64,000 nt of DNA from an uncultured Candidatus Saccharibacteria bacterium (lineage in GTDB: Bacteria > Patescibacteriota > Minisyncoccia > Phycocordibacterales > UBA9973): assembly GCA_964361705.1 (NCBI GenBank), contig CAYIBP010000001.1, positions 26,727 through 90,726 of the forward strand, in the 5' to 3' direction. The position numbers and the translations under genes are program-made. Within the stretch, counting starts at the first letter, position 1; each line of letters starts with the position of its first letter. The notes under the pieces are model-generated. The model was not told the origin of the DNA. It did no database searches and saw only the letters and a program-made list of their open reading frames with translations. This document shows positions 35,576 to 61,863 of this stretch, one piece after another.

Positions 35576-37288
35576 TTAGTATATTTCCTTCTGATAGCAA
35601 CTTTCACAATACACTATTTCTGGTCTATCTAGTGAATATGAGGTTTCAAATTCGTTAGAGCACCTTTCCTTCATGCATTTCCGATGCCATAGTTTTAAAG
35701 GATTGCGCGATTTCATCCTCCTATCATTCCGGCAGAAAAAACAATTCCTAGGCAAAGGTACCTGCATTCTCTTATAAAAAAGCAATTCTTGATTTGTAAT
35801 CTTAAAATTACGATCACAAGACCCACAAACCAGAACTTCGTTTATAATGTCTTCCACAACATCATTGATATCATCTGGTATGTTTTCTTGTGACATCGTT
35901 TCTTTGCCTACGGTACGTTTGAAATCATTCTGCCATTTCAAGCCACGAGCCTCTGCCTCGCTCTGTGTAAGAGGAAACATTGAGAGGGCCTCTGTTTCGT
36001 TGTAATTAAAATAAGACATTCGAGCGGGGAAAAATTCTCCCCACTCTTTTGTTTTTTTCATTAGCTCAATGATCTCATTTTTTAGTTTAAAATATTCTTC
36101 TTTTGTGTATCTTTTATTCAAAATTACATACTCTCCTTTTTTGACACTCGCACATCCAAAGATATTGTTGCACGAATGGCAATTGTCACAATAAGCAATA
36201 TCTTTATCCTTCCATGAATAAATACTAAAAAGATTATTATAAGATTGGTCTGGTGTTGCCGCCTCATAAGAATATTCCACCTCTCCACCACCGGACAAAT
36301 CGTAACAATCCTTAAACTTTACACCATTGTAGACGAATCTTGATTCCTCGCTAAACGGGGCAAAGAAAGAATCTCTGGTGTGTTTTGCCTCTATCAGATC
36401 ATTCCCCGTACAATTCAGACAATTACGAAACATCGCAAACCGACGCGGATATTTTAAAATAAATTCCTTAAACTCCTTCTCAGCCCTCTGCCAACCAGTA
36501 AAAGTATTCAAGGCGTAAGATTTCAAAATATCTTCATACTCTTCCTTGCTGTATTGTTTGTTACGAAAATAATATCTCTTGCTTCTCAAGCCAAAAGACA
36601 TAAAACAATCGCTACAATCACGACAGTCATAACAAAAATCACAGTTTTGTAGCGAATTACCATATATCACATATCTGCACTTATAACACTTATCAATCAA
36701 AATTGACTCGTACATGAATTCATTAAAATCATAAGCACCAAGACAATCGCACAGTTCCCTGCCCTCATTTAGAAAACAAGAATACATCACGCTCTCTAAT
36801 TTCCAAGAAATAAAAGTCATGTAACAATTTTTAGAAAATGCAACATCGTGACAATAAGGACTATTCATACTGGAAATACCATCATCGTTCATCAGGGCGA
36901 TCTTTGGCACTTTGTGATTTAGTTCCATGTACTGTTCAAAAAAAGATTTGTTCGGATCAAAATCCTGTCCGTATTTGTATGGATCCCAGTTGTCGTTCCA
37001 GAAACACTTGACGCAATAAACGACCAAATCAGAGTCAGGTTTGTAAATAGAAAGAGTGCTCTTGCCACACAGATCGCACGAACGATTGTACAGATTGTAT
37101 GTATTCCTCCAAGCCAACCTGCGTTGACTTCTACAATCTGGACAAAAAGTCGGGGGTGGCACTTTGATTTTTTCATAAAACCCAAAATCGTCAGATTCTA
37201 TAGTGAAATCTTTTTTACAGTTTTGACAATTGCGGGTTTCGGATTGCATATATTTTAATATACCTCTTTTTTGTAACAATCTTCGCAA
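35576..37288 (-). CDS. cysteine-rich multi-zinc-ribbon protein, novel family, paralog B
   Basis: 570 aa, same architecture as paralog A: N-term CQNCKKDF...FYEKIKVPPPTFCPDCRSQRR...CDLCGKS...YCVKCF; C-term CGSCDRNFKI...FYKRMQVPLPRNCFFCR...CSNEFETSYS...VYCESCYQKEIY. Confidence 0.6.
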   Translation of the reverse strand: MRRLLQKRGILKYMQSETRNCQNCKKDFTIESDDFGFYEKIKVPPPTFCPDCRSQRRLAWRNTYNLYNRSCDLCGKSTLSIYKPDSDLVVYCVKCFWNDNWDPYKYGQDFDPNKSFFEQYMELNHKVPKIALMNDDGISSMNSPYCHDVAFSKNCYMTFISWKLESVMYSCFLNEGRELCDCLGAYDFNEFMYESILIDKCYKCRYVIYGNSLQNCDFCYDCRDCSDCFMSFGLRSKRYYFRNKQYSKEEYEDILKSYALNTFTGWQRAEKEFKEFILKYPRRFAMFRNCLNCTGNDLIEAKHTRDSFFAPFSEESRFVYNGVKFKDCYDLSGGGEVEYSYEAATPDQSYNNLFSIYSWKDKDIAYCDNCHSCNNIFGCASVKKGEYVILNKRYTKEEYFKLKNEIIELMKKTKEWGEFFPARMSYFNYNETEALSMFPLTQSEAEARGLKWQNDFKRTVGKETMSQENIPDDINDVVEDIINEVLVCGSCDRNFKITNQELLFYKRMQVPLPRNCFFCRNDRRMKSRNPLKLWHRKCMKERCSNEFETSYSLDRPEIVYCESCYQKEIY

Positions 37289-39012
37289 TAAAGCATGTTA
37301 TACCCTTCTTCTAGGTTAAACACAGACTCTATCTTTTTATTGCATTTTTTACAAGAAGTCTGATATTTTTTGGCAGTCAAAAACATGGCGAGTTCTTCTT
37401 GCATGCGTATCATCGGATGCGTGTCCGGTAGCGGAATTTTCATTTTTCTTAGAAATTGAAGTTCAGATTGGATAATCCTAAACGGTCTGCCTGTGACTTT
37501 ACACTCTATGGCTTTTTCCACAATATCATCATTCACATCATCTATATATTTTGGTATATCTGCATTCGTCAGTATTTGTTCGTTTGATATATTGGTTTCT
37601 GGCTCCTCGGCTATATAACCACCTAGTTTTATAATTTGTTCCTCACTCAAAGGGAAAACAATTTGGCTCAATGAAAAATTGTATGCTTGAGCAGAAAATT
37701 CCATACCTAAACCATCGCCATACTCGCCTATCTTTAACATTTCATATTTAATTTTATCCAGTAGTTTATAATATTCTTCTGCAGAATATTGTTTATTCAA
37801 AATACAATAGGATTTATCCCTTAAACCAAAACACATAAAACAATTGCTCAAATTACTGCAATTAAAAACAAATTCGCAATCAAGAAGTATTTTTGAATGT
37901 GAAGAAAATTTCACATTGCTGGAATGATTGCCAGTATTTATAGTGCTATACAACAAACTGGAATGCCCTCCAGAAAACAGCGTATCCATAGAATCATTCA
38001 GAAAAAAACTTCCATCTATATGCCGTACATTTTCTGTGTCTTTTGAAGCAGTAGCATCAAAAATATTTTTAGCATCTCTGAGCAACACACCATTACAATT
38101 TTCTATGTTTGTATTAGCAGAAGCATTTATTGGCGAAGATTTAACGAGCAACCAAAATTTATCTTCCATATCTTTTATTTTCTCTCGCGACAGAGGATAA
38201 ATGGATTTGATAAAATCTTTGTATTCTTTTTCCGAAAGTTGTTTATTCCAAACACAATATTTCGCATTTCTAAGGTTCACTGAACCAAAACACTTGTCAC
38301 AGTTTCGACATCCAAATAAAAATATACTATCTGTGCAATCTTTTGAAAAATAAACAAAAGAAGATTTATAAATATGATCAGAATAAACACTACCATAAAC
38401 ATGATCAGATTCATCTATAACTCTGGAATCCATGCCGTCTTTGACTTTATTCATTGAATTGCAATACCAAAGATTTTCAGAAAAAAAGCAACCTGTCACA
38501 TAATAACCATTCTTTAGGTTTCTACCGCCATTTGAATATTCACTATTTATTGTCGAAGGATCTTTGTTTAGAAAAGATGGCATGGGAAAAACTTTTCGAA
38601 GCGCAAAAAGTATAGCCAAAGGACTTGCGCCGTCCTTGTACTCCAAGCCAAAAGAAAAAGCATCGAAACTATCACCCATAAAATATTTATAATCATAAAC
38701 AGGAAAAGGACACTCTTTCGGAAATATAGATATCATTGATTCGTTGTGGTTAGATACATTGCAAGATCTTTTAAAAAGTCGGGAGCTATCTTTTTGTGTT
38801 AATCTTCTGATTCTCCTACAAGTAGGACAAAAGTTTGGAGCTGGAACTCGAAGCATTTTTAAAAATTCTATATCGCCTTTTGATATTTCAAACTCTCCCT
38901 CGCAGTGTATATGCAAACCCGCCCATCTGCAAACACGAGAGTGAGGAGTAAGATTTGCCAAAATTTCGTCTAGCAACTTATCAAATCTGGGTGTTTTTGA
39001 CACTGATTGCAT
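37255..39012 (-). CDS. cysteine-rich multi-zinc-ribbon protein, novel family, paralog C (most divergent)
   Basis: 585 aa; internal CRNCDKCFG...KEY and CSNLSNCFMCFGLRDKSYCILNKQYSAEEY repeats; C-terminal ...KKCNKKIESVFNLEEGYNMLYCEDCYKKEVY. N-terminal module degenerate (HxxC...CPTCRR). Confidence 0.55.
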   Translation of the reverse strand: MQSVSKTPRFDKLLDEILANLTPHSRVCRWAGLHIHCEGEFEISKGDIEFLKMLRVPAPNFCPTCRRIRRLTQKDSSRLFKRSCNVSNHNESMISIFPKECPFPVYDYKYFMGDSFDAFSFGLEYKDGASPLAILFALRKVFPMPSFLNKDPSTINSEYSNGGRNLKNGYYVTGCFFSENLWYCNSMNKVKDGMDSRVIDESDHVYGSVYSDHIYKSSFVYFSKDCTDSIFLFGCRNCDKCFGSVNLRNAKYCVWNKQLSEKEYKDFIKSIYPLSREKIKDMEDKFWLLVKSSPINASANTNIENCNGVLLRDAKNIFDATASKDTENVRHIDGSFFLNDSMDTLFSGGHSSLLYSTINTGNHSSNVKFSSHSKILLDCEFVFNCSNLSNCFMCFGLRDKSYCILNKQYSAEEYYKLLDKIKYEMLKIGEYGDGLGMEFSAQAYNFSLSQIVFPLSEEQIIKLGGYIAEEPETNISNEQILTNADIPKYIDDVNDDIVEKAIECKVTGRPFRIIQSELQFLRKMKIPLPDTHPMIRMQEELAMFLTAKKYQTSCKKCNKKIESVFNLEEGYNMLYCEDCYKKEVY

Positions 39013-39024
39013 AAAGATATCATA

Positions 39025-39057
39025 GCAAAAAACCTCGTAAATTACGAGGTTTTTTGC
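39025..39057. terminator. intrinsic terminator hairpin gcaaaaaaCCTCGTaaattACGAGGttttttgc downstream of dnaK
   Basis: Perfect 14-bp stem (including A/T extensions) with T-run, read from sequence. Lies between the dnaK stop (39073) and the start of Cys-rich paralog C (39012) on the reverse strand. Confidence 0.55.
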
Positions 39058-39072
39058 TGAAGTTTGAGATTT

Positions 39073-40977: not shown

Positions 40978-41017
40978 ATTCTTAATATATTATTAATAAT
41001 GCTTGATAATTAAAGAT

Positions 41018-41053
41018 TTAGCAGGCTTTTCGCGGTCGCAAAAAACTTGCTAA
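41018..41053. promoter_or_regulatory. imperfect CIRCE-like palindrome TTAGCAggcttttcgc-ggtc-gcaaaaaacTTGCTAA in dnaK upstream/divergent promoter region
   Basis: Outer half-sites TTAGCA / TGCTAA match CIRCE half-sites (TTAGCACTC-N9-GAGTGCTAA), but spacer and inner arms differ. Located 41-76 bp upstream of the dnaK start. Confidence 0.35.
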
Positions 41054-41080
41054 AAACAGTATATATGATAAGATATCCAC

Positions 41081-41614
41081 ATGTCAAGCAAATCTGGATA
41101 TTCCAGTAAAATACTTAAAATATTGGCTGAAAAACCGGCACTTTCTCTGGAAGCTGTAAAAGAAAACTCGAACAAAAAAGACAAAAGAGAAGAGTATTCT
41201 TTAAACAGATCTGTCAAAAGTCTCACTGAAGCCGGCTGTGTTGAAATAATACGCTCAGAACACAAGGATTATTTACGACTCACTAAAAAAGGAAAAAATA
41301 GATTGAATAGTTTGCGTATCGGAGACACAGATGCCTTGGTACCACAAACTTGGGATGGGTTTTGGCGAATTGTGATATTGGATTTACCCGAAGACAGAAA
41401 AAACGAACGCGAATCTTTGCGATACCTTTTGAAAAAAGCAAACTTCGTTTGTGTGAAAAATACTGTTTGGATTTCGCCACACCCATACGAACATCTTTTT
41501 ACAAATATAAAAAAAGATTTAGGACTCTCTACAGAAATGATGATAATAACGACAAACAACCTAGATGAAGAAACTCATAAAGCATTCCTCAAAGAGATAG
41601 GTGGGCAATCTTAA
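41081..41614 (+). CDS. uncharacterised winged-helix + Cas2/VapD-like fold protein (paralog of 4789-5349)
   Basis: 177 aa; WDGFWRIVILDLPEDRKNERESLRYLLKKANFVCVKNTVWISPHP aligns with the C-terminal block of 4789-5349. Divergently transcribed from dnaK. Confidence 0.45.
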   Translation: MSSKSGYSSKILKILAEKPALSLEAVKENSNKKDKREEYSLNRSVKSLTEAGCVEIIRSEHKDYLRLTKKGKNRLNSLRIGDTDALVPQTWDGFWRIVILDLPEDRKNERESLRYLLKKANFVCVKNTVWISPHPYEHLFTNIKKDLGLSTEMMIITTNNLDEETHKAFLKEIGGQS

Positions 41615-43377
41615 TACACTTCCCTTTTATAACATTCTTCGCAATAAACTTTTTCGGTTCTGTCTGGAGAATACGGAGTTTCAAATTCGTTTGAGCATTT
41701 TTGATCGTGTCCGTGAGTGGTATTATCGCAAACACAAACTCTGTGCCATAAATTCCTAGGCGTGCGAAGCTTTTGTCTCTCTAAATATCTGCAATCAGGA
41801 CAAAATTCTGGTATCGGAACACTCATTCTTTTGTATAAATCGAATTCAGCTAAAACAATGTTGTAATTTTTGCTACATTTTTTGCAAGCAAGAACTTCTT
41901 TTGTTATTGTATCTGGCGTATTTGAAATACTATCAGGCAAAGTCTTTAAAGTTTCTTTACCAAAAGTACCTCCCAAATCATCTGCCCATTTAAAACCCTT
42001 CTCTAAAGTGTCTTCTTTAGTCAGTGGCATATATACATTGCCCTGCGTTTCGTTGTAACAAATAGGTGAATACTTCGGCGGGAAAAATTCTCCCCATTCG
42101 CCTGTATTCTTCATATGTTCTTTTATCTTTTGTACAAGTTTTTCATATTCTTCTTTGGTGTATTGCTTGTTGAATATACAATAAGAATTCTTTTTCAAGG
42201 CTACGCACCCGAAAAGATTTTGACCGTTGTGACAAGAATCGCAATAATACGCAAAAGTATTGTCGTAGGACAAATTGCAAGAAATCAGGTTAGATGAGCG
42301 CACTATCGCGTGAGAATTATACACGAGTTCTGTTTGTAGCCCCACATGATACACATCCATACAATCTTTTGTATCTGGAGACATCGCAGCAAAATGCACA
42401 TTTTCAGCTCGCTCTATATCAAACACCCTTTTGGAATTCTTGGAATTTAGCACAATATTGCCTGTGCAATCCACCGACTTATCTATCACAGCACACCTGT
42501 GCACCGCCTTTTGTTTTATCATATTTATATACTCCGCGTATAATTTATCTCGCGTAGCTCTGGAACCCAGATACATTTCTTCCATTTTTTTCTTATAGTC
42601 TTCTCTCGTGTATTGTTCATTATTTATACAGTAACTCTTATTGCGCAAGTTGTAACACATAAAACAATTTGAGCAATTCCTGCAATCATAAGAATAAAAA
42701 CAATCAGAACAATCCTTTAAAAACTTTCCGTACTGGCAATTGTAAAGATTCTCTCCATCTATACATTCATAACACATCGAGATATTCATAGGGTTGTAAA
42801 GGCAATCCACGCAGTCTCTGCCCTTCTCCCAAGTATTTGTACAGTAGAGCATATTTTCGCAATTGAACATGCAAAAAGACAGGTAGCAATCTTTATTGTC
42901 GCCAGCGTGATTTGTATAGTCAGAGTTAATAGTATTCTTATTGAGCAAAGCTATCCTCGGACACTCTAGTAACAGATCATAAAACTGTTCAAAAAATGGT
43001 TTTGTAAAATCAAAATCGCGCCCATAGTCAAGCGCGCTCCATTTGTCGCTCCAAAAACACGAAGTGCAAAAAACCTTAAAAGGCTTATCTGGAGAATACA
43101 CTGTCACTATAGACTTGTTGCATAAATTGCACACACCCCTATACAGCCTCCTTTCATTCCTAAAAGCATATCTGATCTGTTGCCTGCAATCAGGGCATTT
43201 GTCCGGCACCGGCACATCCATCTTTTTATAAAAAGCAAAATGATCCGGCTCGATGGTAAAGCTAGCCTTGCAACTCTGACAAGTCGCGGACACTGAGTTT
43301 GACGAATGTGTTTTAGTTTCCTGTTTCTCCATTGTATTCAAAAACATTGACGCGTGCTGGACGCAAAACTCTTTCAC
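41611..43377 (-). CDS. cysteine-rich multi-zinc-ribbon protein, novel family, paralog D
   Basis: 588 aa; N-term CQSCKASF...FYKKMDVPVPDKCPDCR...CNLCNKS...FCTSCF; C-term CKKCSKNYNI...LYKRMSVPIPEFCPDCR...CSNEFETPYS...VYCEECYKREVY. The 5' end overlaps the grpE 3' end, so the true start is probably an internal Met (MEKQETK). Confidence 0.6.
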   Translation of the reverse strand: MKEFCVQHASMFLNTMEKQETKTHSSNSVSATCQSCKASFTIEPDHFAFYKKMDVPVPDKCPDCRQQIRYAFRNERRLYRGVCNLCNKSIVTVYSPDKPFKVFCTSCFWSDKWSALDYGRDFDFTKPFFEQFYDLLLECPRIALLNKNTINSDYTNHAGDNKDCYLSFCMFNCENMLYCTNTWEKGRDCVDCLYNPMNISMCYECIDGENLYNCQYGKFLKDCSDCFYSYDCRNCSNCFMCYNLRNKSYCINNEQYTREDYKKKMEEMYLGSRATRDKLYAEYINMIKQKAVHRCAVIDKSVDCTGNIVLNSKNSKRVFDIERAENVHFAAMSPDTKDCMDVYHVGLQTELVYNSHAIVRSSNLISCNLSYDNTFAYYCDSCHNGQNLFGCVALKKNSYCIFNKQYTKEEYEKLVQKIKEHMKNTGEWGEFFPPKYSPICYNETQGNVYMPLTKEDTLEKGFKWADDLGGTFGKETLKTLPDSISNTPDTITKEVLACKKCSKNYNIVLAEFDLYKRMSVPIPEFCPDCRYLERQKLRTPRNLWHRVCVCDNTTHGHDQKCSNEFETPYSPDRTEKVYCEECYKREVY

Positions 43378-43966
43378 CCAGCTTGTAACCCTTTTGAATC
43401 ACTACGGAAATTTTATGATTGTCTTCTTGTTTATCGGTAGCAGTAATATCCATAGATTGATGAAGATTTGGATCAAAATCCTCGCCCACACGACCTATCT
43501 CTTTCACACCATATTCTTCAAAAATAGTATTGAGTTGAGAGTAAATATATTCCACTCCCTTGCGCCAATTTTGATCTACTTTTTCCCATGCTTCTTTGTT
43601 GGCAAAAGCCATATTAAAACTATCAATCACGGACAAAAATCTGGTCAACATGCGCTCACGCATAGCTTCTGAGAAGACTGCTTTTCTGTCTTCCTCTTGT
43701 TTCTTGAAATTCGCAAAATCTGCCCGCTCTTTCTGCCAACCTGTCAAATATTCTTCTTTTTCAGATTTTACCTGTTTCAGATCAGCTCGCAATTTCTTGA
43801 TAGTCTTTTTCAAGTCTTCTTCGCCGTCTTCATTGAACTCGAATTCGAGCACCTCTGTATCATCAGAAACACCAGAGGCGCCATCATCTGTTTCTTTCCC
43901 CTCTCCCGCGGGAGAAGAGCTTTGTATTTCATCGTCTGTTATTTCCTTAGAATCTTCGTCTGCCAT
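43313..43966 (-). CDS. grpE: nucleotide exchange factor GrpE
   Basis: 217 aa: acidic N-terminus, long paired helix, C-terminal beta domain (…HQSMDITATDKQEDNHKISVVIQKGYKLGERVLRPARVNV). Confidence 0.9.
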   Translation of the reverse strand: MADEDSKEITDDEIQSSSPAGEGKETDDGASGVSDDTEVLEFEFNEDGEEDLKKTIKKLRADLKQVKSEKEEYLTGWQKERADFANFKKQEEDRKAVFSEAMRERMLTRFLSVIDSFNMAFANKEAWEKVDQNWRKGVEYIYSQLNTIFEEYGVKEIGRVGEDFDPNLHQSMDITATDKQEDNHKISVVIQKGYKLGERVLRPARVNVFEYNGETGN

Positions 43967-43975
43967 ACAAGCATA

Positions 43976-44022
43976 TTAACACAAAAATCCCTCTTTTTTC
44001 AAGAGGGATTTTTGTGCGTTAA
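43976..44022. promoter_or_regulatory. extended CIRCE-like inverted repeat TTAACACAAAAATCCCTC-N9-GAGGGATTTTTGTGCGTTAA immediately upstream of grpE
   Basis: Read directly. 18/20-bp arms with 9-nt spacer (ttttttcaa). Outer and inner bases follow CIRCE (TTAGCAC..CTC-N9-GAG..GTGCTAA), with an 8-bp AAAAATCC/GGATTTTT insertion in each arm. Starts 10 bp upstream of the grpE ATG. Confidence 0.55.
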
Positions 44023-44065
44023 AACCAAAATATTTATCTTTACAAATCAAAGATACTTGACCTAT

Positions 44066-44710
44066 TTATTCTATTTTTACACTTTCTTTAAACACAGGGA
44101 TCACATCGAGGTATTTTGAAAAATGATTTTGACAGACATATACCCACTTGAGCTTCATTTCTTCATCACAAAGTACAGGTACGACCATGTGACCATTCTT
44201 CATGCGAGCAATAGACTTAAATAAAATTATCCTTCTGTTTTCACGATGATGTTTGAGATATTTTCTTATAATTTTAAACCATTCTATTCTTTTCTTGTAG
44301 ACTTCCTCAGGATCGCCATCTTTTGAAATGTCCTCTCCCTGCATTAAAGCGATTCCTTCTCTTATCCCGAGACATTTATCAAGCAATCCTTTATCTTTGA
44401 TATATTCATATACTTTATTGATATATAAAACTGTTAAGGCTTCCGGAATCTGACAGGTGTCAATATCTGAAAGAGAAAATTCACTTGGACCGACAGATTT
44501 AATATCTGGATGAACGAGTCTATTGATCCCAGTATAATATATGGGGTTAGGAAATAAAATTTCTGGGACTTTTAGTCTCATATTAAAAATCGCAGAGTGT
44601 TGCTCCTTTAGTTTCAACCTTCCTGCCTTTATTTTCTCTTTATTTTTAGCATCAATAATTGAAACAACGTCAATACTTTCATCCATATTGGTATAATAGC
44701 TCCGATTCAA
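44066..44710 (-). CDS. hypothetical protein
   Basis: 214 aa ORF with no recognisable motifs. Lies between the two copies of the CIRCE-like element. Confidence 0.4.
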   Translation of the reverse strand: MNRSYYTNMDESIDVVSIIDAKNKEKIKAGRLKLKEQHSAIFNMRLKVPEILFPNPIYYTGINRLVHPDIKSVGPSEFSLSDIDTCQIPEALTVLYINKVYEYIKDKGLLDKCLGIREGIALMQGEDISKDGDPEEVYKKRIEWFKIIRKYLKHHRENRRIILFKSIARMKNGHMVVPVLCDEEMKLKWVYVCQNHFSKYLDVIPVFKESVKIE

Positions 44711-44848
44711 CTATAAGGCAACGATGTCGCGGAAGTCCGACTTCCGCAAATCTTTCGCAAATTCAAAAGAATAAAAGAATAAGATAAGAGATAAGGAGAT
44801 AAGGGGACAGCCACCATTCTTTTTCCACTCTTTATTAATGTTACCCTT

Positions 44849-45028
44849 TTAAATTATTAAAAACAATGGTGGCTGACCCCAATATCTGACCCCAATATCC
44901 CCTTCCTCACCGTCTTCATTAAACTCGAAGTCCAAAACTTCAGAGTCATCTACCTCTTTTTCACTAACTTCACTGTCCTTTGCAGTTTCCTCTATTTCCT
45001 CTTCATTTGTGTCCTTTTCGTCTGTCAT
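44849..45028 (-). pseudogene. duplicated grpE 5' fragment (59 codons) fused to unrelated sequence
   Basis: Translation MTDEKDTNEEEIEETAKDSEVSEKEVDDSEVLDFEFNEDGEEGDIGVRYWGQPPLFLII*; residues 27-42 match the grpE N-terminus (…DDTEVLEFEFNEDGEE…). Preceded by a second copy of the CIRCE-like element. Confidence 0.5.
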
Positions 45029-45037
45029 ACAAGCATA

Positions 45038-45084
45038 TTAGCACAAAAATCCCTCTTTTTTCAAGAGGGATTTTTGTGCGTTAA
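45038..45084. promoter_or_regulatory. second copy of extended CIRCE-like inverted repeat (TTAGCACAAAAATCCCTC-N9-GAGGGATTTTTGTGCGTTAA)
   Basis: Near-identical to 43976-44022; left half-site here is the canonical TTAGCAC. Same distance from the ATG of the grpE fragment. Confidence 0.55.
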
Positions 45085-45115
45085 AATAAATTTAAGTTTA
45101 TAAATCCAAGTTGCA

Positions 45116-45994
45116 TTAGATAGGACAAACCGTTATTCCAGTTTTTCTTTTTAAAAGTTTCTGCATATTACCAAGTCCTTCTACTACGGCATCTATCCGA
45201 TCTTGAGAATCCTCCTCAGTTACTTTATTTTGAGCTATAAATTCTTTATACGCATTCCAACTTTCTTCGGTAAGACGACAAGAAGACGATTCGGTGTACG
45301 CCAACAAAACTCCGTTATAAGAATTCAAATTACCTTTTCTTACCAATTTACTTTGTCCTATTTTTAGATTATTTGAAGCTTGATCTACTTCATCTTGAGT
45401 ATTATCTTCTGTAACCAAATTAGATTTTATAACTTCCTGATATTCAGCCCAACTTTTTTTGGTATATCTTTCTGAAGGTAATTGATCATATTTGTAACCA
45501 GGAATTAAAGTATAATCATAATTTGCCAAAACTGCTTGGTATTCAGATAAATCTGGGATAGGTTGATCGCACGATAAACGCCTTATTCTTAATCTTGTTT
45601 TTAAATCTGCTAAACCACTAATTTCTAAATTGTTACTCTTTTGGAAAGACTTAACCGCTCTCAAAGTCATTGGGCCAAACACACCATCATTTTTACCGCT
45701 TAAATATTTTTTTGATTTAAGAAATTTCTGTAAGAAATATACAGGTCCATTGGCATTTTTGTCCCTATCTTTGTAGGTAATGTCTTGAGTAAGATCGATG
45801 CAACTCTCATCGTAACCTGAAACTACAATGTTTGACACTGAAGGATATGCAGCGCAAGGCATACCTGTCAAGTTGCTGTATTTATAACCCATGGAACAAG
45901 AATCTATTTCTGCTGCCTTTGTTTGACCAGCAAATGTGAATAAAACAAAAAGCAAAAGCACTAATGAAATATTCTTTTTCATATTATTTTTCAA
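45116..45994 (-). CDS. secreted protein with peptidoglycan-binding (PG_binding_1-like) domain and two FIVAR-like repeats
   Basis: Signal peptide MKKNISLVLLLFVLFTFAGQTKA. PG-binding-like VYFLQKFLKSKKYLSGKNDGVFGPMTLRAVKSFQKSNNL. Two repeats of type YTKKSWAEYQEVIKSNLVTEDNTQDEVDQASNNL, similar to repeats in the N-terminus of the 2367-aa protein. Confidence 0.55.
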   Translation of the reverse strand: MKNNMKKNISLVLLLFVLFTFAGQTKAAEIDSCSMGYKYSNLTGMPCAAYPSVSNIVVSGYDESCIDLTQDITYKDRDKNANGPVYFLQKFLKSKKYLSGKNDGVFGPMTLRAVKSFQKSNNLEISGLADLKTRLRIRRLSCDQPIPDLSEYQAVLANYDYTLIPGYKYDQLPSERYTKKSWAEYQEVIKSNLVTEDNTQDEVDQASNNLKIGQSKLVRKGNLNSYNGVLLAYTESSSCRLTEESWNAYKEFIAQNKVTEEDSQDRIDAVVEGLGNMQKLLKRKTGITVCPI

Positions 45995-46154
45995 TCGAAT
46001 TATTTGATAATGCGTCTGTTTTTTCTTTTTTGAGGGATTTTGAAATTATCAGAGAGAGAGAGAGCCATGTACACAAAACAAAACCCGAAAGCGATAGCTT
46101 CCTTATCTAGACTAATAAATTGATCTCTAATACTCCAAGGGGTAATAATAACGA

Positions 46155-46439
46155 TTATAATATATATATATATATATTAGTAAACCTTCTCCAGAAAATA
46201 AAAACTGATTCTTTTAATTTTAAGACAATCAAAGAAAAGACAAGAATTGGAACAGAAATCATCGTAAATATTAAAAACAAATCGAAAGCTTTATTGCATA
46301 TATTATAGATATTTGTTTTTTGACAAAAATCGAAAAAATAATATGGCATTATAAAACGAAAAACAATAAACACTATAGATAAAACAAAGGAAATTGTAGT
46401 TATCTTTTCTTTTGTAAACCACTCAAGTAATTTCTTCAT
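46155..46439 (-). CDS. small membrane protein S1 (paralog of S2/S3, truncated), C-terminus encoded by (TA)8
   Basis: MKKLLEWFTKEKITTISF... aligns with the S2/S3 N-termini (MDKLLEWFTRKRI…). Ends NIYIYIL* where S2/S3 have FIYLFIYLFIYLF. Confidence 0.45.
   Translation of the reverse strand: MKKLLEWFTKEKITTISFVLSIVFIVFRFIMPYYFFDFCQKTNIYNICNKAFDLFLIFTMISVPILVFSLIVLKLKESVFIFWRRFTNIYIYIL
46161..46176. repeat. (TA)8 dinucleotide repeat inside the 3' end of S1
   Basis: Read directly: tatatatatatatata. Confidence 0.8.
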
Positions 46440-46445
46440 AAAATT

Positions 46446-47114
46446 TTAGTTAAATATTAATGTCTGCAAATCAAAAGAAACTGGTAAATATAGTGTGGTA
46501 TTTTCTTTCGGTTCGACTTCTAATTTTTTTGTCTCTGAAATGATTCCGTTAATTTCTTTATCTACATCTAATAATATCATTTCTTGGTTGTTTCCATCTA
46601 TGTTTACTGTGTATTGAACTCCTTCTTTTACAGATATATATTTAGTATTTCCTACTTCCATATATCTTGAATTTGGTATTTCTTCAAATACTTGATTGGT
46701 AGCTTTGTCAAAACCTGTTTTCTTGCCTGTACTGTCCACGATATACATATCACCACCGGAATAGAGATTTAGAACGATGTCAGTGTTTATTTCTGAGAGC
46801 AAGGTTGTGGGACGAGAATTTATTACAATACTTTCTGGATCAGAAAAAGTGTTATTTTGTATTTTTGCCTTTATAAAATTTCTTAGGTTTGAAATTTCCA
46901 AGATATCTTTGTGAGTTCTGTCCTTTGGAAAACTATCCTCTTTCTTCAAATCCACCCACCACCTCTCTACTTTATCAGATGCATTCATCCATAGAGCAGA
47001 TGAAGTGGCTACTGTCTGATCTCCTTCAAAAGTAGTTTTTGTTTTCGAATGAAATTTATCTTTATCAACAATATAATCTATCCCCGCCAAGGTCTTTTCC
47101 CCCCCATCCACCAA
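46446..47114 (-). pseudogene. out-of-frame C-terminal continuation (222 codons) of surface protein A
   Basis: Translation VDGGEKTLAGIDY…DRTHKDILEISNLRNFIKAKIQ… is collinear with the C-termini of proteins B and C, but in a different frame from 47065-49935. Frames diverge at the C7 (plus-strand) homopolymer at 47099-47105. Confidence 0.6.
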
Positions 47115-49912
47115 CTTGTATCACTTTCGTATTTTCTGGAGCTTGCCAGTTATCAAGTATTTGATGCACTTGTTCCGCGTTGTTGTACAAAGTTTCGTTT
47201 CCATTGTTTGGATTGTCCAAATCATCTCCTGTTGGTTTTTCTCTCCCCTCTTTACCAAGAATGAAATCTTTAAACTCCGTGAAATTTGATATTTCATTTC
47301 CGTATTTTTCTGTTTGTTTTGAAAAAAGTTCGTGATTTGGGAAAGTAATTATCTTGTTTAGATTTAAACTAGGATCACCTTGAATATCGAAATATTCCTT
47401 TGAAGGAAGGAGGTTGTATGTTGTGGGCATATTTTCTGCGAGGTATCTTTGGTTTGTGGCAGTCATAACAACACCGTATACTAACCTAGTTCCATGCAGA
47501 AGAGAAAGAAATCCCTCCGGCGTTCCCACTTGTGGTGTAGCTACGAATATCACTTTATCTATTTTATCATACAGTGGATCGTTTTGATCTTTGAGTTTCT
47601 GTATTAATGCCTTGATGACTAGTCCACCATTTGAGTGTCCTATCAGTGTGACTTTTCCTGATTTTGAATTTGATTGCAAATCTCGAAGTTTCTTGAGTAT
47701 GAAAGATTCTGAGAAAGTTTGATCTTCTGTGTATGAGAGTTTGCCTCTTTCTTTTACTTTTCCGTTTGTGATAATGTCATCTAGTGATAAACGCCAATCG
47801 TAAGGAATAAAAGCATAATCATTTATGGTCTTATCTTTTTCTTTCCAGTCTCGTAGATCATCTATGAATGACTGGTAAATATTAATACCATAAGCATCAT
47901 CAACGATTCCTGTTTCATCTGAAAATGAATCGTTTACTGTATCATTTTTAGTGTAAAGGTCTAAAACCTTTTTGCCATTTTCATTCAACGCCATTCTCTT
48001 TTGTTCATCGGGTAAAATTCTGATGGAAACCCACAACTCTTTATCTTCAACGCAATTCATAAACAGATCTTCACAATAATCGGCTGATGGTCCTGGCAGA
48101 GCCTTTACCTCCTCATACAACCTCGAACCCATGATCCCAGGGAAGAACATTACATTTGAGAAACAATCTGTGGTGCAAATAACAGGTGCGACTTCTTGTT
48201 GTTTAGTTTTAAAGTATAGTTTTTCTGACAACCATCCACCTTGGTTTTGAGCGTCTTTCGCTCTGACATGCCAATAGTACAATGATCCTGGATTAAGATT
48301 TGCTGTGTATGAATTTGTGGATATGTCTTCCTTGTCTACTTCAAGGTTTCCTGTAGTCATGTTGCGGACATACAAAGCATATTTTGAAGCTCCGGGTACA
48401 GTGTTCCATGAGAATGCTTGGGTGGTACTTGATATTTCTGGAACAGATGAATTTTTTGCTGTTTCATCTGATGAGAAATACTTACCTGGGGATATTTGTT
48501 CTGGATTCGGTAAATATATATTCTTTGGAGTACAAAGACCATTTAATTCAAATTGGTTCAGATCAAACTCTGATAGAGTAGATGAACAAGCAGGTAACAC
48601 CTTGAATTCATTCGATGTTGCTGTAGCAGAATTGTATGTCGCTGTTAGTTTTACTTGATTTATAGCAGAAGTGAGTTTTACTTTTCCAGAATATTGATTG
48701 CTCTGTATTGTTACAGATTTTGGGTAGATATTTCCCATACTAGATGACAGAGAAATATTTGAACCATTTGGGATATTTTGAGTGTTCAAAATGATATCAA
48801 ATTCAGAACCATTTTGAACTTGAGAAATGTTGTTCCAAGATACTGTGGAGACTCCTGGAGGTGGTGGTGGAATTTCTTTCTTGTTCACAGTGATTGTGAT
48901 GTCTTGTGTGACAGCTTGGCTATTTGATCCTAAACATCTAAAAGTAAATGTCGTAGTCTGATACATCGGTCCGATGTTGTAAGTGGTATTGTGCAAAGGG
49001 TAATTTACTAATCCTGCCCCAGAAATATCACAGGAAGAAGTGTTGGTGCTAGAAAGGGTAAATGTTCCATTCTGTCCTTCTTCCACTGTTTGAGTGGTTG
49101 GAGTTACAGAGATGGTAGGAGTAGCAGGTTCATTGTTTACTATGTAAAAATACCATCTATCTGTGAACCATCCAGAACGACCGAGTGAGTCGTGAGCGTT
49201 TGCGTTCCAGCCGTAACTATGTCCTTTTTGAAGATTTACTGTGCAAGAAGTGGTAGCCAGATTTTGACATACAGGTAATAGTAATCCTCCGTTGTAATAA
49301 TCACGAATATTAATATCGTAAGTGGAAGCTCCTACTGAAGGAGTGATAGTGAATGTTTGGGTTGAAGTCATGACTGAAGCACCATCATCGGGAGAAATTA
49401 GAAATGGTTCCTTTAGATTTGGGTTTGCAGGAGCACAGAGGCCTTCGAGTTTGAATGTTTTCTTTTTGTTTAGATCTATTTTTAATGTTTCCTGTTCTTT
49501 GTTTAAATGTTCATATTCCCCTTCTTCTGCTAGACAGCTTAAGCTAGAGGAAGCGGTGAAGGAGGAGGTACCTACTGTTTGGCCGTTGTATTTTGCTGTG
49601 ATAGTGACGGGTCCATAGGCTGAAGTGATTGTAAACTCTTCGTAGTAGTTCGGATATGGTGGACGGATTGAATTCGGAGAAAGATTGCCCATCGAAAGGT
49701 GTAGGGTTATCTCCTCGGACTGGCTTTCATTTACGGGGATGCCTTCCGTTTTAAAATTGATGAGAAATGTGTCTCCGTTTCTTATGTTTCCAATGTTACC
49801 AAAGGTGACCTTTGGTGTGGTGTTTGAGACATTTACGGTGAAGGGTTGCTGGGCAAAGACTTGTAGTGGTGAAAGTATGAATATGAGAAGAAGGAATGTG
49901 GAAAGGAGATTT

Positions 49913-49935
<23 letters not shown>
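47065..49935 (-). CDS. secreted multidomain surface protein A (Ig/FN3-like repeats + lipase-like alpha/beta-hydrolase domain), frameshifted near 3' end
   Basis: Signal peptide MSQLPKTKNLLSTFLLLIFILSPLQVFA. Lipase-like nucleophile elbow LIGHSNGGLVIKALIQKL and FVATPQVGTPEGF. Homologous to B and to the C-terminal ~1100 aa of C. ORF terminates prematurely after …VIQVGGWGGKDLGGDRLYC* owing to a +1 G in a G-run relative to B. Confidence 0.6.
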
Positions 49936-50344
<409 letters not shown>

Positions 50345-50350
50345 AAAATT

Positions 50351-53293
50351 TTAGTTAAAAGTTAATGCTTGCAAATCAAAAGAAACTGGTAAATCTAATG
50401 TAATCTTTTCTTTTGATTCTATTTGTAATGTCTTTGTTTCTGAAACAATTCCATTCATTTCTTTATCTACATCTAATAGTATCATTTCTTGGTTATTTAC
50501 ATCTATGTGTACTGTGTATTTAGTACCTTCTTGTACAGAGATATACTTAGTATTTCCTATTTCCATGTATCTGGAATTTGGTATTTCTTCAAAAACCTGA
50601 CCTGTGGTTTTATCGAAACCTGTCTTTCTGCCGTCATTATCAGTGACATACATTTCACCCCCAGAATATAGGTTTAGAACTATATCAGTATTTACCTCTG
50701 AAAGAGAGGTTGCGGGACGGGAGTTTATGACGATGTTTTCTGGGTCAGAAAAAGAAGTATCTTGTATTCTTGCCTTTAAAAAATTTCTTAGATTTGAGAC
50801 TTCTAGAATGTTTTTATGTGACTTGTCTGGAAAACTTTCTTCATTATAACTCTTCAAATCCACCCACCACCTCTCTACCCTGTCAGAGGTATTAATCCAC
50901 AAAGAAGATGAAATAGCCACGGTTTCATCTCCTTCCTTTGTCGTTCTAGCCTTTGGATACATAGTCCTATTGGAAGGAGGACAGTTGAGAGGTAAACAAC
51001 CAGTTGATTTTGTTCCATACTCTATCCCTGCCAATGTCTTCTCCCCCCATCCCCCTACCTGTATCACTTTTGTATTTTCCGGTGCTTGCCAGTTATCAAG
51101 TATTTGATGCACTTGTTCCGCGTTGTTGTACAGATTTTCATTGCCATTGTTTGCATTGTCTAGGTCATCCCCTGTTGGTTTTTCTCTTCCTTCTTTACCT
51201 AGAATGAAATCTTTAAACTCTGTGAAATTTGATATTTCTGTACCATATTTCTCTGTTTGTTTGGAAAATAGTTCGTGATTTGGGAAAGTTATTATCTTGT
51301 TCAGATTTAATGAAGGATCACCTTGGATGTCGAAGTACCCTTTTGATGGGAGTAGATTGTATGTGGTGGGCATATTCTCTGCGAGATACCTATTGTTTGT
51401 GGCGGTCATCACAGCTCCAAAAGCAGCTAATCTAGTGCCATGTAATAAAGAAAGAAATCCTTCCGGAGTTCCCACTTGCGGAGTGGCTACTAATATTACT
51501 TTATCTATCTGATTGTAAAGAGGATCGTTTGCATCTTTTAATTTTTGTATTAAGGCTTTGATCACCAATCCTCCGTTTGAATGGCCTATCAATGTGACTT
51601 TACCTGATTTTGAATTTGATTGCAGATCTCGAAGTTTCTTAAGAATGAAAGACTCGGAAAAGTTTTGTGAGTCAGCATATGATAGCTTGTTTCTTTCCCC
51701 CACTTTTCCATTAGTGATGATATCTTCGAGTGATAATCTCCAATCGTAAGGCACTAATGAGTAGTCTGTTATCACATTACTATTTTTCAAATCCTTCAGA
51801 TCATCAGCAAAAGATTTGTAAATATTAAGACCTATGAAGCCTGGAACTTCTTCTACTAATCCTTTGTCTTCTTTTGTGTAAATATCGTAGATCTTCTTGC
51901 CATTCGAATCTAATGCCATTCTTCTATGATCATCATGCAAGGCAGCAAGAGAGACCCACAACTCTTTATCCCAGAAACATTCACTGCCGTTTAGTACTTC
52001 ACCACAATCCAATGAACCTTTCTCCTCATACAACCTCGACCCCATAATCCCAGGAAAGAACATAACATTTGAAAAACAGTCTGTGGTGCAGGTAGTAGGG
52101 ACAATTTCTTGGGATTTAGTTTTAAAGTATAGTTTTTCTGATAACCATCCACCTTGATTGTTGCTGTCTTTAGCTCTGATGTGCCAGTAGTACAATGATC
52201 CTGGATTTAGATTTGCTGTATATGAGTTTGTAGATATGTCTTCTTTGTCTACTTCAAGGTTTCCTGTTGTCATATTACGAACATACAGTGCATATTTTGT
52301 AGCTCCGGAGACTGTTGTCCATTTGAAAGTCTGGGTTGTAGAGTCTACTTCCTCCCCTGTCCAGGCCTTGCCTGGACTTAGGGGTTCCGGATTCTGTAGA
52401 TATATATTCTTCGGAGTACACAAACCAGAAAGCTCAAATTCAGATAGTTCGAGTTCTGAAAGAGAAGAATAACATGTAGGATCAATATCGAATGTATTTG
52501 AAGTTGTTAAAACATTTCCATTGTACGAGACTTTTAATTTCACTTTGTTGATAGCTGAAGTTACTTTGATATTTCCTGTATAAGTATTGTTCTGTATTGT
52601 TACTGTCTTTGGAATCACAGTCCCCATAGCAAAAAGTGGTTGGTCTTCATCATTTGGGACACCGAAAGAAGTGAGTTCAAGATTCGTTCCATCTGCAATA
52701 TTTGTGGTATTGATCGTTATCGGAAAAAGTTCGCTCGTTTTGGTATTTAAGATTTGAGAGATGATGGCTGTGGGGATGCCTGGTGGTGGTACCACTTCTT
52801 TCTTGTTCACAGTGATAATGATGTCTTGAGATACTGCTTGGCCATTTGATCCAATACATCTGAAAGTAAATATGGCAGTTCGATACATAGGTCCAATACC
52901 GTAATCACCATTAGCAAGACGGTGGTTTACGAGTCCAGCTCCTGTTATGTCACAAGAAGTGGTATTAGTGGAAGAAAGAACAAAGCTTCCGTCTGTTCCT
53001 TCCTCTATTGTTTGAGTTGTGGGAGTTACTGATATTGTAGGTGGAGTGTTGGGATTTTGAGATCTAACATTAAAATACTTTCTGTCTGCAAACCATCCTG
53101 ATCTATTTTGAGAATCAAAGGCATTAGCATTCCATGTGTAGTTGTGTCCTTCTTTTAAGACTACATCTACAAATTGACCTGTAGTTTTGTAGACAGTGAG
53201 TTCATTGTTTACAGAGATGTCTCTGATATTTACTTCATATCTGATAGCGTTGGGGACATATGCTATCTCTAGGGTTTGATTTGGTCCATACAC
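50351..53293 (-). CDS. secreted multidomain surface protein B (5'-truncated copy of the C-terminal half of C)
   Basis: Listed ORF starts at GTG, but the frame stays open upstream into the adjacent IS-like element, so there is no native signal peptide. Contains GHSNGG lipase-like domain and Ig/FN3-like repeats. Residues ~1-730 are identical or nearly identical to the corresponding part of C. Confidence 0.5.
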   Translation of the reverse strand: MYGPNQTLEIAYVPNAIRYEVNIRDISVNNELTVYKTTGQFVDVVLKEGHNYTWNANAFDSQNRSGWFADRKYFNVRSQNPNTPPTISVTPTTQTIEEGTDGSFVLSSTNTTSCDITGAGLVNHRLANGDYGIGPMYRTAIFTFRCIGSNGQAVSQDIIITVNKKEVVPPPGIPTAIISQILNTKTSELFPITINTTNIADGTNLELTSFGVPNDEDQPLFAMGTVIPKTVTIQNNTYTGNIKVTSAINKVKLKVSYNGNVLTTSNTFDIDPTCYSSLSELELSEFELSGLCTPKNIYLQNPEPLSPGKAWTGEEVDSTTQTFKWTTVSGATKYALYVRNMTTGNLEVDKEDISTNSYTANLNPGSLYYWHIRAKDSNNQGGWLSEKLYFKTKSQEIVPTTCTTDCFSNVMFFPGIMGSRLYEEKGSLDCGEVLNGSECFWDKELWVSLAALHDDHRRMALDSNGKKIYDIYTKEDKGLVEEVPGFIGLNIYKSFADDLKDLKNSNVITDYSLVPYDWRLSLEDIITNGKVGERNKLSYADSQNFSESFILKKLRDLQSNSKSGKVTLIGHSNGGLVIKALIQKLKDANDPLYNQIDKVILVATPQVGTPEGFLSLLHGTRLAAFGAVMTATNNRYLAENMPTTYNLLPSKGYFDIQGDPSLNLNKIITFPNHELFSKQTEKYGTEISNFTEFKDFILGKEGREKPTGDDLDNANNGNENLYNNAEQVHQILDNWQAPENTKVIQVGGWGEKTLAGIEYGTKSTGCLPLNCPPSNRTMYPKARTTKEGDETVAISSSLWINTSDRVERWWVDLKSYNEESFPDKSHKNILEVSNLRNFLKARIQDTSFSDPENIVINSRPATSLSEVNTDIVLNLYSGGEMYVTDNDGRKTGFDKTTGQVFEEIPNSRYMEIGNTKYISVQEGTKYTVHIDVNNQEMILLDVDKEMNGIVSETKTLQIESKEKITLDLPVSFDLQALTFN

Positions 53294-53305
53294 TATTTCA
53301 GGATT
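51112..53305. repeat. ~2.2-kb near-identical direct repeat, copy 1 (matches 55424-57617)
   Basis: Constant offset of 4312 bp; identical sub-ORFs (51229-51435 = 55541-55747; 52236-52472 = 56548-56784). Boundaries judged by eye from flanking mismatches. Confidence 0.75.
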
Positions 53306-53428
53306 GTTTTTGTCTTCTGAACCAGGACTTACTAGATATGGTTCTGCTAGATTTGGGTTTGGTGGAACGCAGAGACCTTCGAGTCCATACCGGGTATGGA
53401 CAGTGTTGGTGTTTAGGTTGATGAGAAG

Positions 53429-54156
53429 AAGGGTGTCAGGTACCCTTTCTAGGTCTCCAGGGTAAACGAATTGTCGCTTCCAATCTAAATTTCTTAATAA
53501 TCTTCATCGACCAATCATCACTTCCATAAGGCTTCCCTTTCGTCACCGAATGTCTAATAGTTTCTTCCTCTTCACTAGGTTGTGATTCATTGACTAGTGA
53601 TAGATAATTATTGGGTTTTGATATAGGCCAATCTGATAACAATTTCTTTTGTTCGGTACTTCCATGTATTTTACGCCACAAACTAGAGAATCTCCAATTT
53701 TCTGCCTTTCGTACCAATTTAGCGCGAAGAGGATTACGTTCAACATAACGAATGACTGAGAGCAGATGATTATCTTTTTCAACAATAAATGATTTGTAAC
53801 GACCTTGATAAAGATGGCCTGTACCCTTTGTGTTTTTTTCTTGGTGCCAACGCTGAGTATGTGTCAATGTAAGCCATTGCATAAATTTACATAGATCTCC
53901 GTCACTTTTTGGATAAAGGACAAGATGAAAATGATTTGGCATTAGTATGTATGCAAGAATACGCATATTATACTTATCTTTTGCTTCTTCTAAGACATTT
54001 TCAAATAGAGTGTAATCTTCTTCTTTAAAGAAGATCGGTAGACGCGCGTTTGCGCGATTGATAACATGATAACAATATTCACCAATATCTGTACGTAGAA
54101 CTCTTCCCATATTTTGATTATATCAGATTTTAATTAAAAGGGTACCTGACACCCTT
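53429..54156. mobile_element. compact IS-like unit: HUH/Y1 transposase gene flanked by perfect 20-bp terminal inverted repeats
   Basis: Left end AAGGGTGTCAGGTACCCTTT (53429-53448) and right end AAAGGGTACCTGACACCCTT (54137-54156) are exact reverse complements. They enclose the transposase ORF 53436-54110. Confidence 0.65.
53436..54110 (-). CDS. IS200/IS605-family-like Y1 (HUH) transposase, RAYT/TnpA_REP-like
   Basis: HUH motif MPNHFHLVLYP and catalytic Tyr region GHLYQGRYKSFIV; 224 aa, in the size range of REP-associated tyrosine transposases. Confidence 0.7.
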   Translation of the reverse strand: MGRVLRTDIGEYCYHVINRANARLPIFFKEEDYTLFENVLEEAKDKYNMRILAYILMPNHFHLVLYPKSDGDLCKFMQWLTLTHTQRWHQEKNTKGTGHLYQGRYKSFIVEKDNHLLSVIRYVERNPLRAKLVRKAENWRFSSLWRKIHGSTEQKKLLSDWPISKPNNYLSLVNESQPSEEEETIRHSVTKGKPYGSDDWSMKIIKKFRLEATIRLPWRPRKGT

Positions 54157-54239
54157 ACCTTCAGCAACTTGTATTATTTTGATCCATACTTTTTCATTCT
54201 AATTATTATTAATCTAAATTTATTGCAGAAAAAAGATTT

Positions 54240-54656
<417 letters not shown>

Positions 54657-54662
54657 TGTATT

Positions 54663-61766: not shown

Positions 61767-61829
61767 AAATGTATTGGGTTTTTAATAATATTAAGAGCTT
61801 TTATGATAGGACTTATTCAATGAAAAGTC

Positions 61830-61856
61830 AAATGCCAAGGATTTCCCTTGGCATTT
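61830..61856 (-). terminator. intrinsic terminator-like hairpin AAATGCCAAGG-atttc-CCTTGGCATTT downstream of rpsI
   Basis: Perfect 11-bp stem; T-rich 3' flank on both strands; 8 bp beyond the rpsI stop. Confidence 0.5.
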
Positions 61857-61863
61857 TTGCATT

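Follow-up and report, generated by a model that had tools for sequence, protein, structure and literature searches.

A palindrome duplicated with the 5' end of grpE in an uncultured Candidatus Saccharibacteria bacterium is probably a terminator fused to a leaderless promoter

Results

Layout of the grpE locus

We analyzed a 64-kb stretch of DNA (the window) from an uncultured Candidatus Saccharibacteria bacterium (GenBank assembly GCA_964361705.1, contig CAYIBP010000001.1, positions 26,727 to 90,726), in which a palindrome directly upstream of the chaperone gene grpE occurs a second time together with a fragment of the grpE coding sequence. Read in the minus-strand direction, the locus consists of a peptidoglycan (PG)-binding-domain gene, a distal palindrome (A), an open reading frame (ORF) of 59 codons, a spacer, an ORF of 214 codons (ORF214), a proximal palindrome (B) and grpE (Table 1). 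Beyond grpE lie the gene for a Cys-rich 588-aa protein, a PaaX-like winged-helix gene and then dnaK. Every gene around the repeat is on the minus strand, and the PaaX-like gene beyond grpE is on the plus strand.

The two palindromes belong to a direct repeat of 70 nt (43955-44024 and 45017-45086) that is 97% identical (68/70) and spaced by 1062 bp. This block contains the hairpin, the promoter and the first four grpE codons; an additional stretch of 49 nt is 78% identical (43816-43864 versus 44902-44950). The palindrome core pattern has two matches in the 64 kb, versus 0.00 expected from shuffles. Independently assembled contigs of several Hainich groundwater metagenome samples show the duplicated arrangement too, so it is not an assembly artefact. 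An earlier note, made from the sequence alone, had described the second palindrome copy 1062 bp upstream, the resemblance of the 59-codon ORF to the GrpE N-terminus, and the repeat-rich spacer and ORF214 between the copies. We recovered all of these: both positions and the repeat were confirmed, MxDE... and DDSEVLDFEFNEDGEE are common to the fragment and GrpE, and a 13-nt tandem repeat and a hairpin with 22-nt arms were found between the copies. One correction was needed: the hairpin has a stem of 17 bp and a 5-nt loop rather than 6 bp and a 9-nt spacer, with a folding energy of about -25 kcal/mol.

Table 1. Coordinates of the features discussed in the text
Feature	Position	Strand	Remarks
PG-binding-domain gene	45994-45116	minus	
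Distal palindrome (A)	45038-45084	minus	17-bp stem 45041-45079; begins 31 nt past the stop of the PG-binding-domain gene (45116)
Distal copy of the predicted extended -10 promoter	45029-45045	minus	TGTGCTAATAT + GCTTGT before the fragment ATG
59-codon ORF	44849-45028	minus	codons 1-43 correspond to the 5' end of a diverged grpE (MTDE...DDSEVLDFEFNEDGEE)
Spacer, structured, non-coding	44711-44848	minus	between the fragment stop codon and ORF214
ORF214	44066-44710	minus	likely start ATG 44686, giving 206 aa
Proximal palindrome (B)	43976-44022	minus	17-bp stem and 5-nt loop (43980-44016), A-tract and T-tract; 44 nt past the ORF214 stop
Predicted grpE promoter core	43967-43983	minus	TGTGTTAATAT (TRTG-extended -10) + 6-nt GCTTGT abutting the ATG at 43966
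grpE, intact, 217 aa	43313-43966	minus	PF01025, E=3e-38
PaaX-like winged-helix gene	41081-41614	plus	
dnaK	40977-39073	minus	
Putative second terminator-promoter fusion, after dnaK	39013-39060	minus	AGCAAAAAACCTCGTA-ATT-TACGAGGTTTTTTGCT, ATGATATCTTT, ATG; hairpin unrelated to that of grpE
Accessory block, ~16.7 kb	45116-61863	minus	between rpsI and the grpE module
IS200-like Y1 (HUH) transposase, 224 aa	53436-54110	minus	own hairpin; TGATATAAT box 6 nt before ATG
rpsI	61864-62289		own, different hairpin

A conserved promoter abuts the grpE start codon

For comparison we used 80 metagenomic loci encoding GrpE relatives of 66-81% identity (referred to below by L numbers), which provide 70 distinct grpE upstream regions. 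Annotations of GrpE relatives are Paceibacterota, Nomurabacteria or Parcubacteria. The element conserved in these 70 regions consists of a T-tract, TRTG, one further nucleotide, TAATAT, 6 nt and the ATG, with T at -19/-18 in 93-94%, TG at -15/-14 in 83%, A at -11 in 97%, T at -7 in 86% and T at -1 in 87% of them. No Shine-Dalgarno motif is seen. In both copies in the window, a promoter scan found TTGAAA in the hairpin loop, 18 nt from TAATAT, and a TG before TAATAT; the -10 box of grpE, TGTGyTAATAT, incorporates the outermost stem bases GTGC. From this conservation we infer that the element is an extended -10 promoter for a leaderless grpE mRNA, with transcription starting at the ATG. A literature search found no transcription-start mapping for this lineage. 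Because the transcript would begin at the ATG, the hairpin would lie outside the grpE mRNA. We also considered an RNA thermometer and rejected it, given this position of the hairpin and a perfect 17-bp stem that would be expected to stay closed at physiological temperatures.

The combination of extended -10 box and ATG matched four times in the window, versus 0.37 expected: at the two grpE copies, at the start of the PaaX-like gene and, as a near-match with longer spacing, before a tRNA-synthetase gene at 18173. Of the 54 ORFs inspected across the window, almost none is preceded by a Shine-Dalgarno motif, and many operon-first genes have TAnnnT at about -12 from the ATG, which suggests that leaderless initiation may be widespread in this genome.

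The hairpin has the features of a terminator of the upstream gene

Hairpins with an A-tract, a stem and a T-tract ending at most 14 nt before the -10 hexamer are found in 39 of the 70 relatives. Among those 39 there are 17 different inner arms with compensatory changes (such as ACCCCT/AGGGGT, CCCTCT/AGAGGG, GCCCTT/AAGGGC and TTCCAAG/CTTGGAA), and about 18 of the 70 upstream regions have no hairpin. Perfect stems of at least 10 bp occur in 39% of 50-nt upstream windows versus 0% in coding or shuffled controls. RNAalifold applied to a MAFFT alignment of the upstream regions returned no structure, with register shifts in the alignment, and per-sequence stems with controls were used instead. What appears to be conserved across relatives is thus the pairing of the hairpin and not the sequence of its arms.

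The position of the hairpin points to the gene upstream. Synteny in the relatives runs rpsM-rpsK-rpsD-rpoA-rplQ-rplM-rpsI, hairpin, grpE, one or two Zn-ribbon genes, the PaaX-like gene on the opposite strand and dnaK, and the gap between rpsI and grpE measures 20-310 nt in 68 of the 71 relatives with an S9 gene detected upstream. In the window, TTTTTGTG follows the inner stem (TCCCTCTT/AAGAGGGA). The closest relative, whose GrpE is 72% identical, has the same core (AAAAATCCCTCTTGAAAAAAGAGGG) starting 4 nt past its rpsI stop codon. Because the hairpin sits just past the rpsI stop in relatives, it would serve as the terminator of the upstream operon. We found its 27-nt core in 57 unrelated genomes, including those of Acinetobacter, Bacteroidia and Saccharibacteria, where it is intergenic in 55 of 57 cases and, in 49 of 57, has a stop codon no more than 80 nt before it. 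This is the distribution that, according to the earlier note, would make the palindrome a generic terminator rather than an operator. Both hairpins in the window also follow stop codons closely (Table 1), and we consider it probable that they are Rho-independent terminators of the genes upstream of them.

A second fusion of terminator and promoter may be present after dnaK. There, a TGCTATGAT box lies 6 nt before the ATG of the downstream gene (37255-39012), and the element would both end dnaK and start that gene without a leader, its outer stem pairing with the TGCT of the extended -10. Rfam gave no gathering-level match in the whole window, generic hairpin noise at permissive thresholds in 43800-45200, and no match in the loci of six relatives. 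No tRNA or tmRNA was found in the window.

The palindrome as a possible operator

The earlier note had read the palindrome as an extended controlling inverted repeat of chaperone expression (CIRCE), which as a target of HrcA would put grpE and, through the distal copy, ORF214 under heat-shock control. In favor of this reading, grpE is a classic HrcA target, the palindrome overlaps the promoter as operators do, and the outer TTAGCAC and GTGCTAA resemble half-sites. However, the canonical element (TTAGCACTC-N9-GAGTGCTAA) has no match with up to three mismatches in the window; the palindrome fits it only after deletion of 8 nt from each arm, the half-sites being about 20 bp further apart. The likeness of GTGCTAA to CIRCE is explained by its being part of the conserved TRTG-n-TAATAT box 6 nt before the ATG, and the TTAGCAC side would be its mere complement at the base of a long stem. 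In addition, the arm sequences are not conserved, about a quarter of the relatives have no hairpin, and in unrelated phyla the same core looks like a terminator of generic use. The dnaK upstream region lacks the palindrome and carries a different conserved one; only two copies of the grpE palindrome exist in the window, both joined to grpE sequence, and groE lies outside the window. In keeping with the earlier note, no hrcA was found in the window: among the 25 window ORFs scanned, including all ten of 282-369 aa, none had a Pfam match to the HrcA family. The CIRCE interpretation is largely refuted, and we regard it as extremely unlikely.

The upstream region of dnaK (41013-41090, minus strand) may provide the actual site of heat-shock control. 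It has a strong and highly conserved promoter (TTGACAT...TATCATATATACT) and, at about +5 to +40, a sequence-conserved palindrome (41013-41050) of approximately the form (G/T)ACAAGTaTTTCGTGGTCGCGAAAaACTTGyTAAA. This arrangement is seen in L063, L069, L072, L081, L082, L089, L091, L100, L105, L120, L128, L129, L131 and L138. The extended -10 of the PaaX-like gene (TATGATAAGAT, 6 nt, ATG) lies inside the dnaK promoter on the opposite strand. The dnaK palindrome is absent from grpE. It and the divergent PaaX-like protein are candidates for the actual operator and regulator of the heat-shock response in this clade.

The PaaX-like protein, or another lineage-specific repressor, could in principle also bind the grpE palindrome and occlude the -35 region and spacer of grpE. 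The palindrome does cover both, its core sequence is identical in the closest relatives (including L104 and L114), and the regulator gene is conserved in the locus. Across the clade, however, only the pairing is kept, with the 17 arm variants and the hairpin-less regions described above. At dnaK the candidate operator (TTTCGTGGTCGCGAAA flanked by CAAGT/ACTTG) has an unrelated sequence, missing at grpE, and a hairpin between A- and T-tracts right past a stop codon is the signature of a terminator. We therefore consider an operator for such a repressor very unlikely.

A second grpE 5' end with a near-identical core and a diverged coding flank

From its ATG, the distal copy maintains an open, acidic, GrpE-like frame for 43 codons, and the remaining tail of the 59-codon ORF consists of sequence from the junction, with the 13-nt tandem repeat (44873-44898) as a part of it. 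The duplication is specific to this lineage. The earlier note had suggested checking related genomes for the un-duplicated arrangement, and all 80 related loci lack a second copy of the promoter and start; an ORF214 homolog or the spacer was found in none of them.

Over the aligned codons, the fragment and the intact grpE differ at codon positions 1, 2 and 3 in a ratio of 10:9:25. In a conserved 16-codon motif they share 37 of 48 nt, and the median identity of the two copies to 71 orthologs of other lineages in this motif is 37 and 36 (of 48). The 70-nt core is 68/70 identical between the copies versus 51/70 at best to any relative. Since the coding part of the fragment differs from the resident grpE as much as orthologs of other lineages do, the fragment is not a recent in-situ copy. 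It appears instead to derive from a grpE allele that diverged while functional, while the 70-nt core would have been shared recently between the copies, a combination that suggests either a foreign or old allele followed by gene conversion or an att-like core. The earlier note's proposal of a duplication of promoter and 5' end bracketing ORF214 holds up; a coding flank at ortholog-level divergence speaks against a simple recent duplication generated by insertion of the ORF.

The same data bear on a plain tandem duplication in situ, in which the distal copy decays as a pseudogene and ORF214 was inserted or already present. Direct repeats 1062 bp apart, and homology starting in either copy about 35 nt ahead of the hairpin, are what such an event would leave. 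Neutral decay should destroy frame and core equally, yet the core is 97% identical, and the fragment keeps its open frame, its acidic composition and differences biased to third positions (10:9:25), while being no closer to the resident gene than orthologs are (37/48 versus a median of 36-37). We find this origin unlikely.

The main alternative to gene conversion is that the 70-nt cores are attL/attR-like junctions of a small non-autonomous unit (grpE' fragment, spacer, ORF214 and U2), similar to a cis-mobilizable element (CIME), which targets the grpE promoter and start. Such a unit would carry a captured, diverged copy of the flanks of its target and would leave grpE intact after integration. 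The near-identical core with both flanks diverged to ortholog level is consistent with this, as are the direct repeats on either side of a unique 1-kb insert, which none of the relatives has. Moreover, the rpsI-grpE junction appears to be an insertion hotspot, because a few relatives carry other small genes there (L107, L119 and L122). On the other hand, there is no integrase or recombinase in or beside the unit, and the only transposase in the window, of the IS200-like Y1 type, lies at a distance of 8 kb, and its hairpins are unrelated. The datasets searched yielded no empty site, no variant contig, no circular junction and no second instance, and the homologs of ORF214 are without mobile-element context. 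Although it is the main alternative, we consider this scenario quite unlikely. In view of the Y1 transposase, IS200/IS605-type ends were also considered for the repeat and rejected, since the hairpins of the transposase are unrelated and the repeat reaches into promoter and coding sequence.

More speculatively, the distal copy may express a free-standing leaderless peptide of 59 aa whose acidic GrpE motif, EFEFNEDGEE, could modulate DnaK, or the 70-nt core may be the att-like site of a tiny non-autonomous unit that targets the start of an essential chaperone gene and carries a spare promoter and 5' end. We would not expect either to be the case, but if true, the peptide or att-like reading would explain the fragment's intact promoter, start codon, open frame and codon-position-biased divergence.

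ORF214 and the spacer

ORF214 has its own promoter-like site, consisting of TTGCCT (44721-44716), 17 nt, TATTAT (44698-44693), 6 nt and the ATG at 44686, and two strong hairpins (z = -5.1) intervene between it and the distal promoter. Control of ORF214 by the distal element, as put forward in the earlier note, is therefore not required. No Pfam, PHROG, NCBIfam or PADLOC family matched the protein. A k-mer-indexed search returned ORF214 alone, and an exhaustive HMMER search found 24 weak relatives that have the motif VDR..P.YPDWV..LHPELE.TGP.EF...IYEYLK...CLGLRDG..IQKKG...LWKSVV in common. Its single-sequence AlphaFold2 model was useless (predicted local distance difference test, pLDDT, of 35); an alignment-based model reached a pLDDT of 77, and a Foldseek search of the PDB with this model gave nothing below E=0.78. 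The homologs, all on short, uninformative contigs, showed no mobile-element context. ORF214 belongs to a small uncharacterised family, and it has no feature that would identify it as part of a mobile-element machinery. In proteins of 500-800 aa from other metagenomes (P0123, P0125 and P0129) its domain, for which there is no Pfam model, occurs as two or three tandem modules.

One of the structured elements between the copies is a hairpin with 22-nt arms and a 34-nt loop (44880-44803), whose 3' arm (44824-44803) is in the spacer and whose 5' arm is inside the fragment ORF. The spacer also has a pyrimidine-rich TTATCT tract and a 9-bp hairpin (44747-44729). At the exact end of the grpE homology, a 13-nt sequence (ATATTGGGGTCAG) is perfectly duplicated in tandem (44873-44898), and this duplication runs into the 22-nt-arm hairpin. 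Neither this hairpin nor the 13-mer has a further copy in the window or in the relatives, and the spacer has no homolog in the relatives and no Rfam match.

The rpsI-grpE junction and neighboring genes

In this genome, about 16.7 kb of accessory genes separate rpsI from the grpE module. The block encodes three subtilase/LCAT-like giant proteins, the IS200-like Y1 transposase and the PG-binding protein, and its genes are absent from the relatives' loci except for two distant matches to the Y1 transposase (26-27% identity; L087 and L118). It holds three paralogous cassettes; in each, a small ORF of 94-143 aa comes after the gene for a giant secreted protein of the LCAT/alpha-beta-hydrolase type. 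Near-identical sequences precede the small ORFs of the three cassettes, and one of the giant proteins (2367 aa) additionally has subtilase and PKD domains.

In many relatives the rpsI-grpE gap contains non-coding elements, about 60-130 nt long, that are conserved (for example ...TTTCCGATGCGAGCTTGCGAGCAGGAAATAGCGGGAGACGTAGTTTGACCAC). These are found in L065 (4842-4979), L069, L091, L096, L098, L111, L120, L127, L128 and L134; other element types occur in L080, L094, L095, L115, L138 and L142, and in L081, L084, L088 and L092. At gathering level, Rfam matched none of them, and they may represent small RNAs that lack annotation. An apparent degenerate second copy of the rpsI 3' end lies between rpsI and grpE in L087 and L121.

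Between grpE and dnaK, one or two paralogous genes for Cys-rich proteins (550-590 aa) that contain many CxxC zinc-ribbon motifs are conserved (window 41611-43377, minus strand; relatives L086, L072, L104, L121 and L144). They overlap the 3' end of grpE. Pfam gave a weak, sub-threshold match to a C-terminal treble-clef zinc finger (PF23477, E=0.004), and the proteins may be chaperone-linked clients or co-factors.

Discussion

Taken as a whole, the locus is most probably explained by a terminator fused to a leaderless grpE promoter, which was duplicated together with a relic second grpE 5' end by rearrangement; we hold this with reasonable, though not full, confidence. Each palindrome would be a terminator of the bidirectional type for the gene upstream of it, made up of an A-tract, a C-rich arm, a loop, a G-rich arm and a T-tract. 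The loop would provide the -35-like TTGAAA, the 3' arm and T-tract would form the 18-nt spacer, and the outer stem bases GTGC would belong to the TRTG-extended -10 box. With the ATG only 6 nt past that box, the grpE mRNA would be leaderless and would exclude the hairpin. In the ancestral layout, the hairpin would have ended the rpsM...rpsI ribosomal operon directly upstream of grpE, and in this lineage accessory DNA would have been inserted between rpsI and grpE. From the synteny and the divergence pattern, we infer the order and mechanism of the rearrangement as follows. The 43 codons headed by the distal copy would come from another grpE allele, one that accumulated its differences while still functional. 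This allele is most likely a remnant of an exchange with foreign or old DNA in which one end, just past EFEFNEDGEE, was illegitimate. Short-tract gene conversion would later have homogenized the 70-nt core.

Several observations weigh against this explanation. The near-identity of the core includes the 6-nt spacer, which is normally variable. An extra event such as gene conversion is therefore needed, because function alone does not account for it, and no donor lineage was found for the fragment. A simple terminator scan left the palindromes unlisted, presumably since the T-run is taken up into the maximal stem. The few closest relatives (L144, L104 and L114) share the hairpin core at the sequence level, and the hairpin may have a protein-binding role in that sub-clade. 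Finally, our scan for HrcA covered 25 ORFs of the 64-kb window, and hrcA may be located elsewhere in the genome.

The main value of this analysis is corrective, in that a tempting 'extended CIRCE' would turn out to be a terminator and a leaderless extended -10 promoter with bases in common. Such a compact arrangement appears repeatedly, as far as these comparisons show, in streamlined groundwater genomes of the Paceibacteria type, and annotators should recognize it. Heat-shock control in the clade may really be exerted at the dnaK palindrome, next to the divergent PaaX-like regulator. The mosaic repeat is a small but clean case of scarring by recombination, and probably of gene conversion, at the rpsI-grpE junction, which is a syntenic hotspot. 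Overall the feature is ordinary, and its sole real curiosity is the near-identical core beside a coding flank that has diverged to ortholog level.

Comparison with known systems

Like CIRCE, the palindrome is an inverted repeat over a chaperone-gene promoter, and seven bases, GTGCTAA, coincide with one half-site. Unlike in that system, the second half-site is imperfect and about 20 bp too far away, the sequence is not conserved across relatives and is absent at dnaK, and no hrcA was seen in the window.

In genomic islands and CIMEs with gene-end duplications, and in scars of illegitimate recombination, foreign DNA is flanked by direct repeats that include one end of the target gene, which itself remains intact, as here. 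The present unit differs in being only about 1 kb long, in duplicating the 5' and not the 3' end, in having no recombinase, and in combining a near-identical core with flanks at ortholog-level divergence.

Promoters with a TRTG '-16 region' have been described for Gram-positives, and leaderless genes for Actinobacteria and Deinococcus. The grpE promoter shares with them TRTG-n-TAnnnT, an ATG 6-7 nt past the -10 hexamer, the lack of a Shine-Dalgarno motif and a pyrimidine at -1; unlike those cases, it is predicted from sequence conservation only.

The closest parallel to the hairpin itself is the bidirectional Rho-independent terminator, with which it shares a perfect stem between A5 and T5 tracts, a position 4-44 nt past stop codons, compensatory changes that keep the structure, and the occurrence of the same core after unrelated genes in many phyla. 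It differs from such terminators in that its T-tract runs directly into the extended -10 box, with part of which the stem pairs (GCAC/GTGC).

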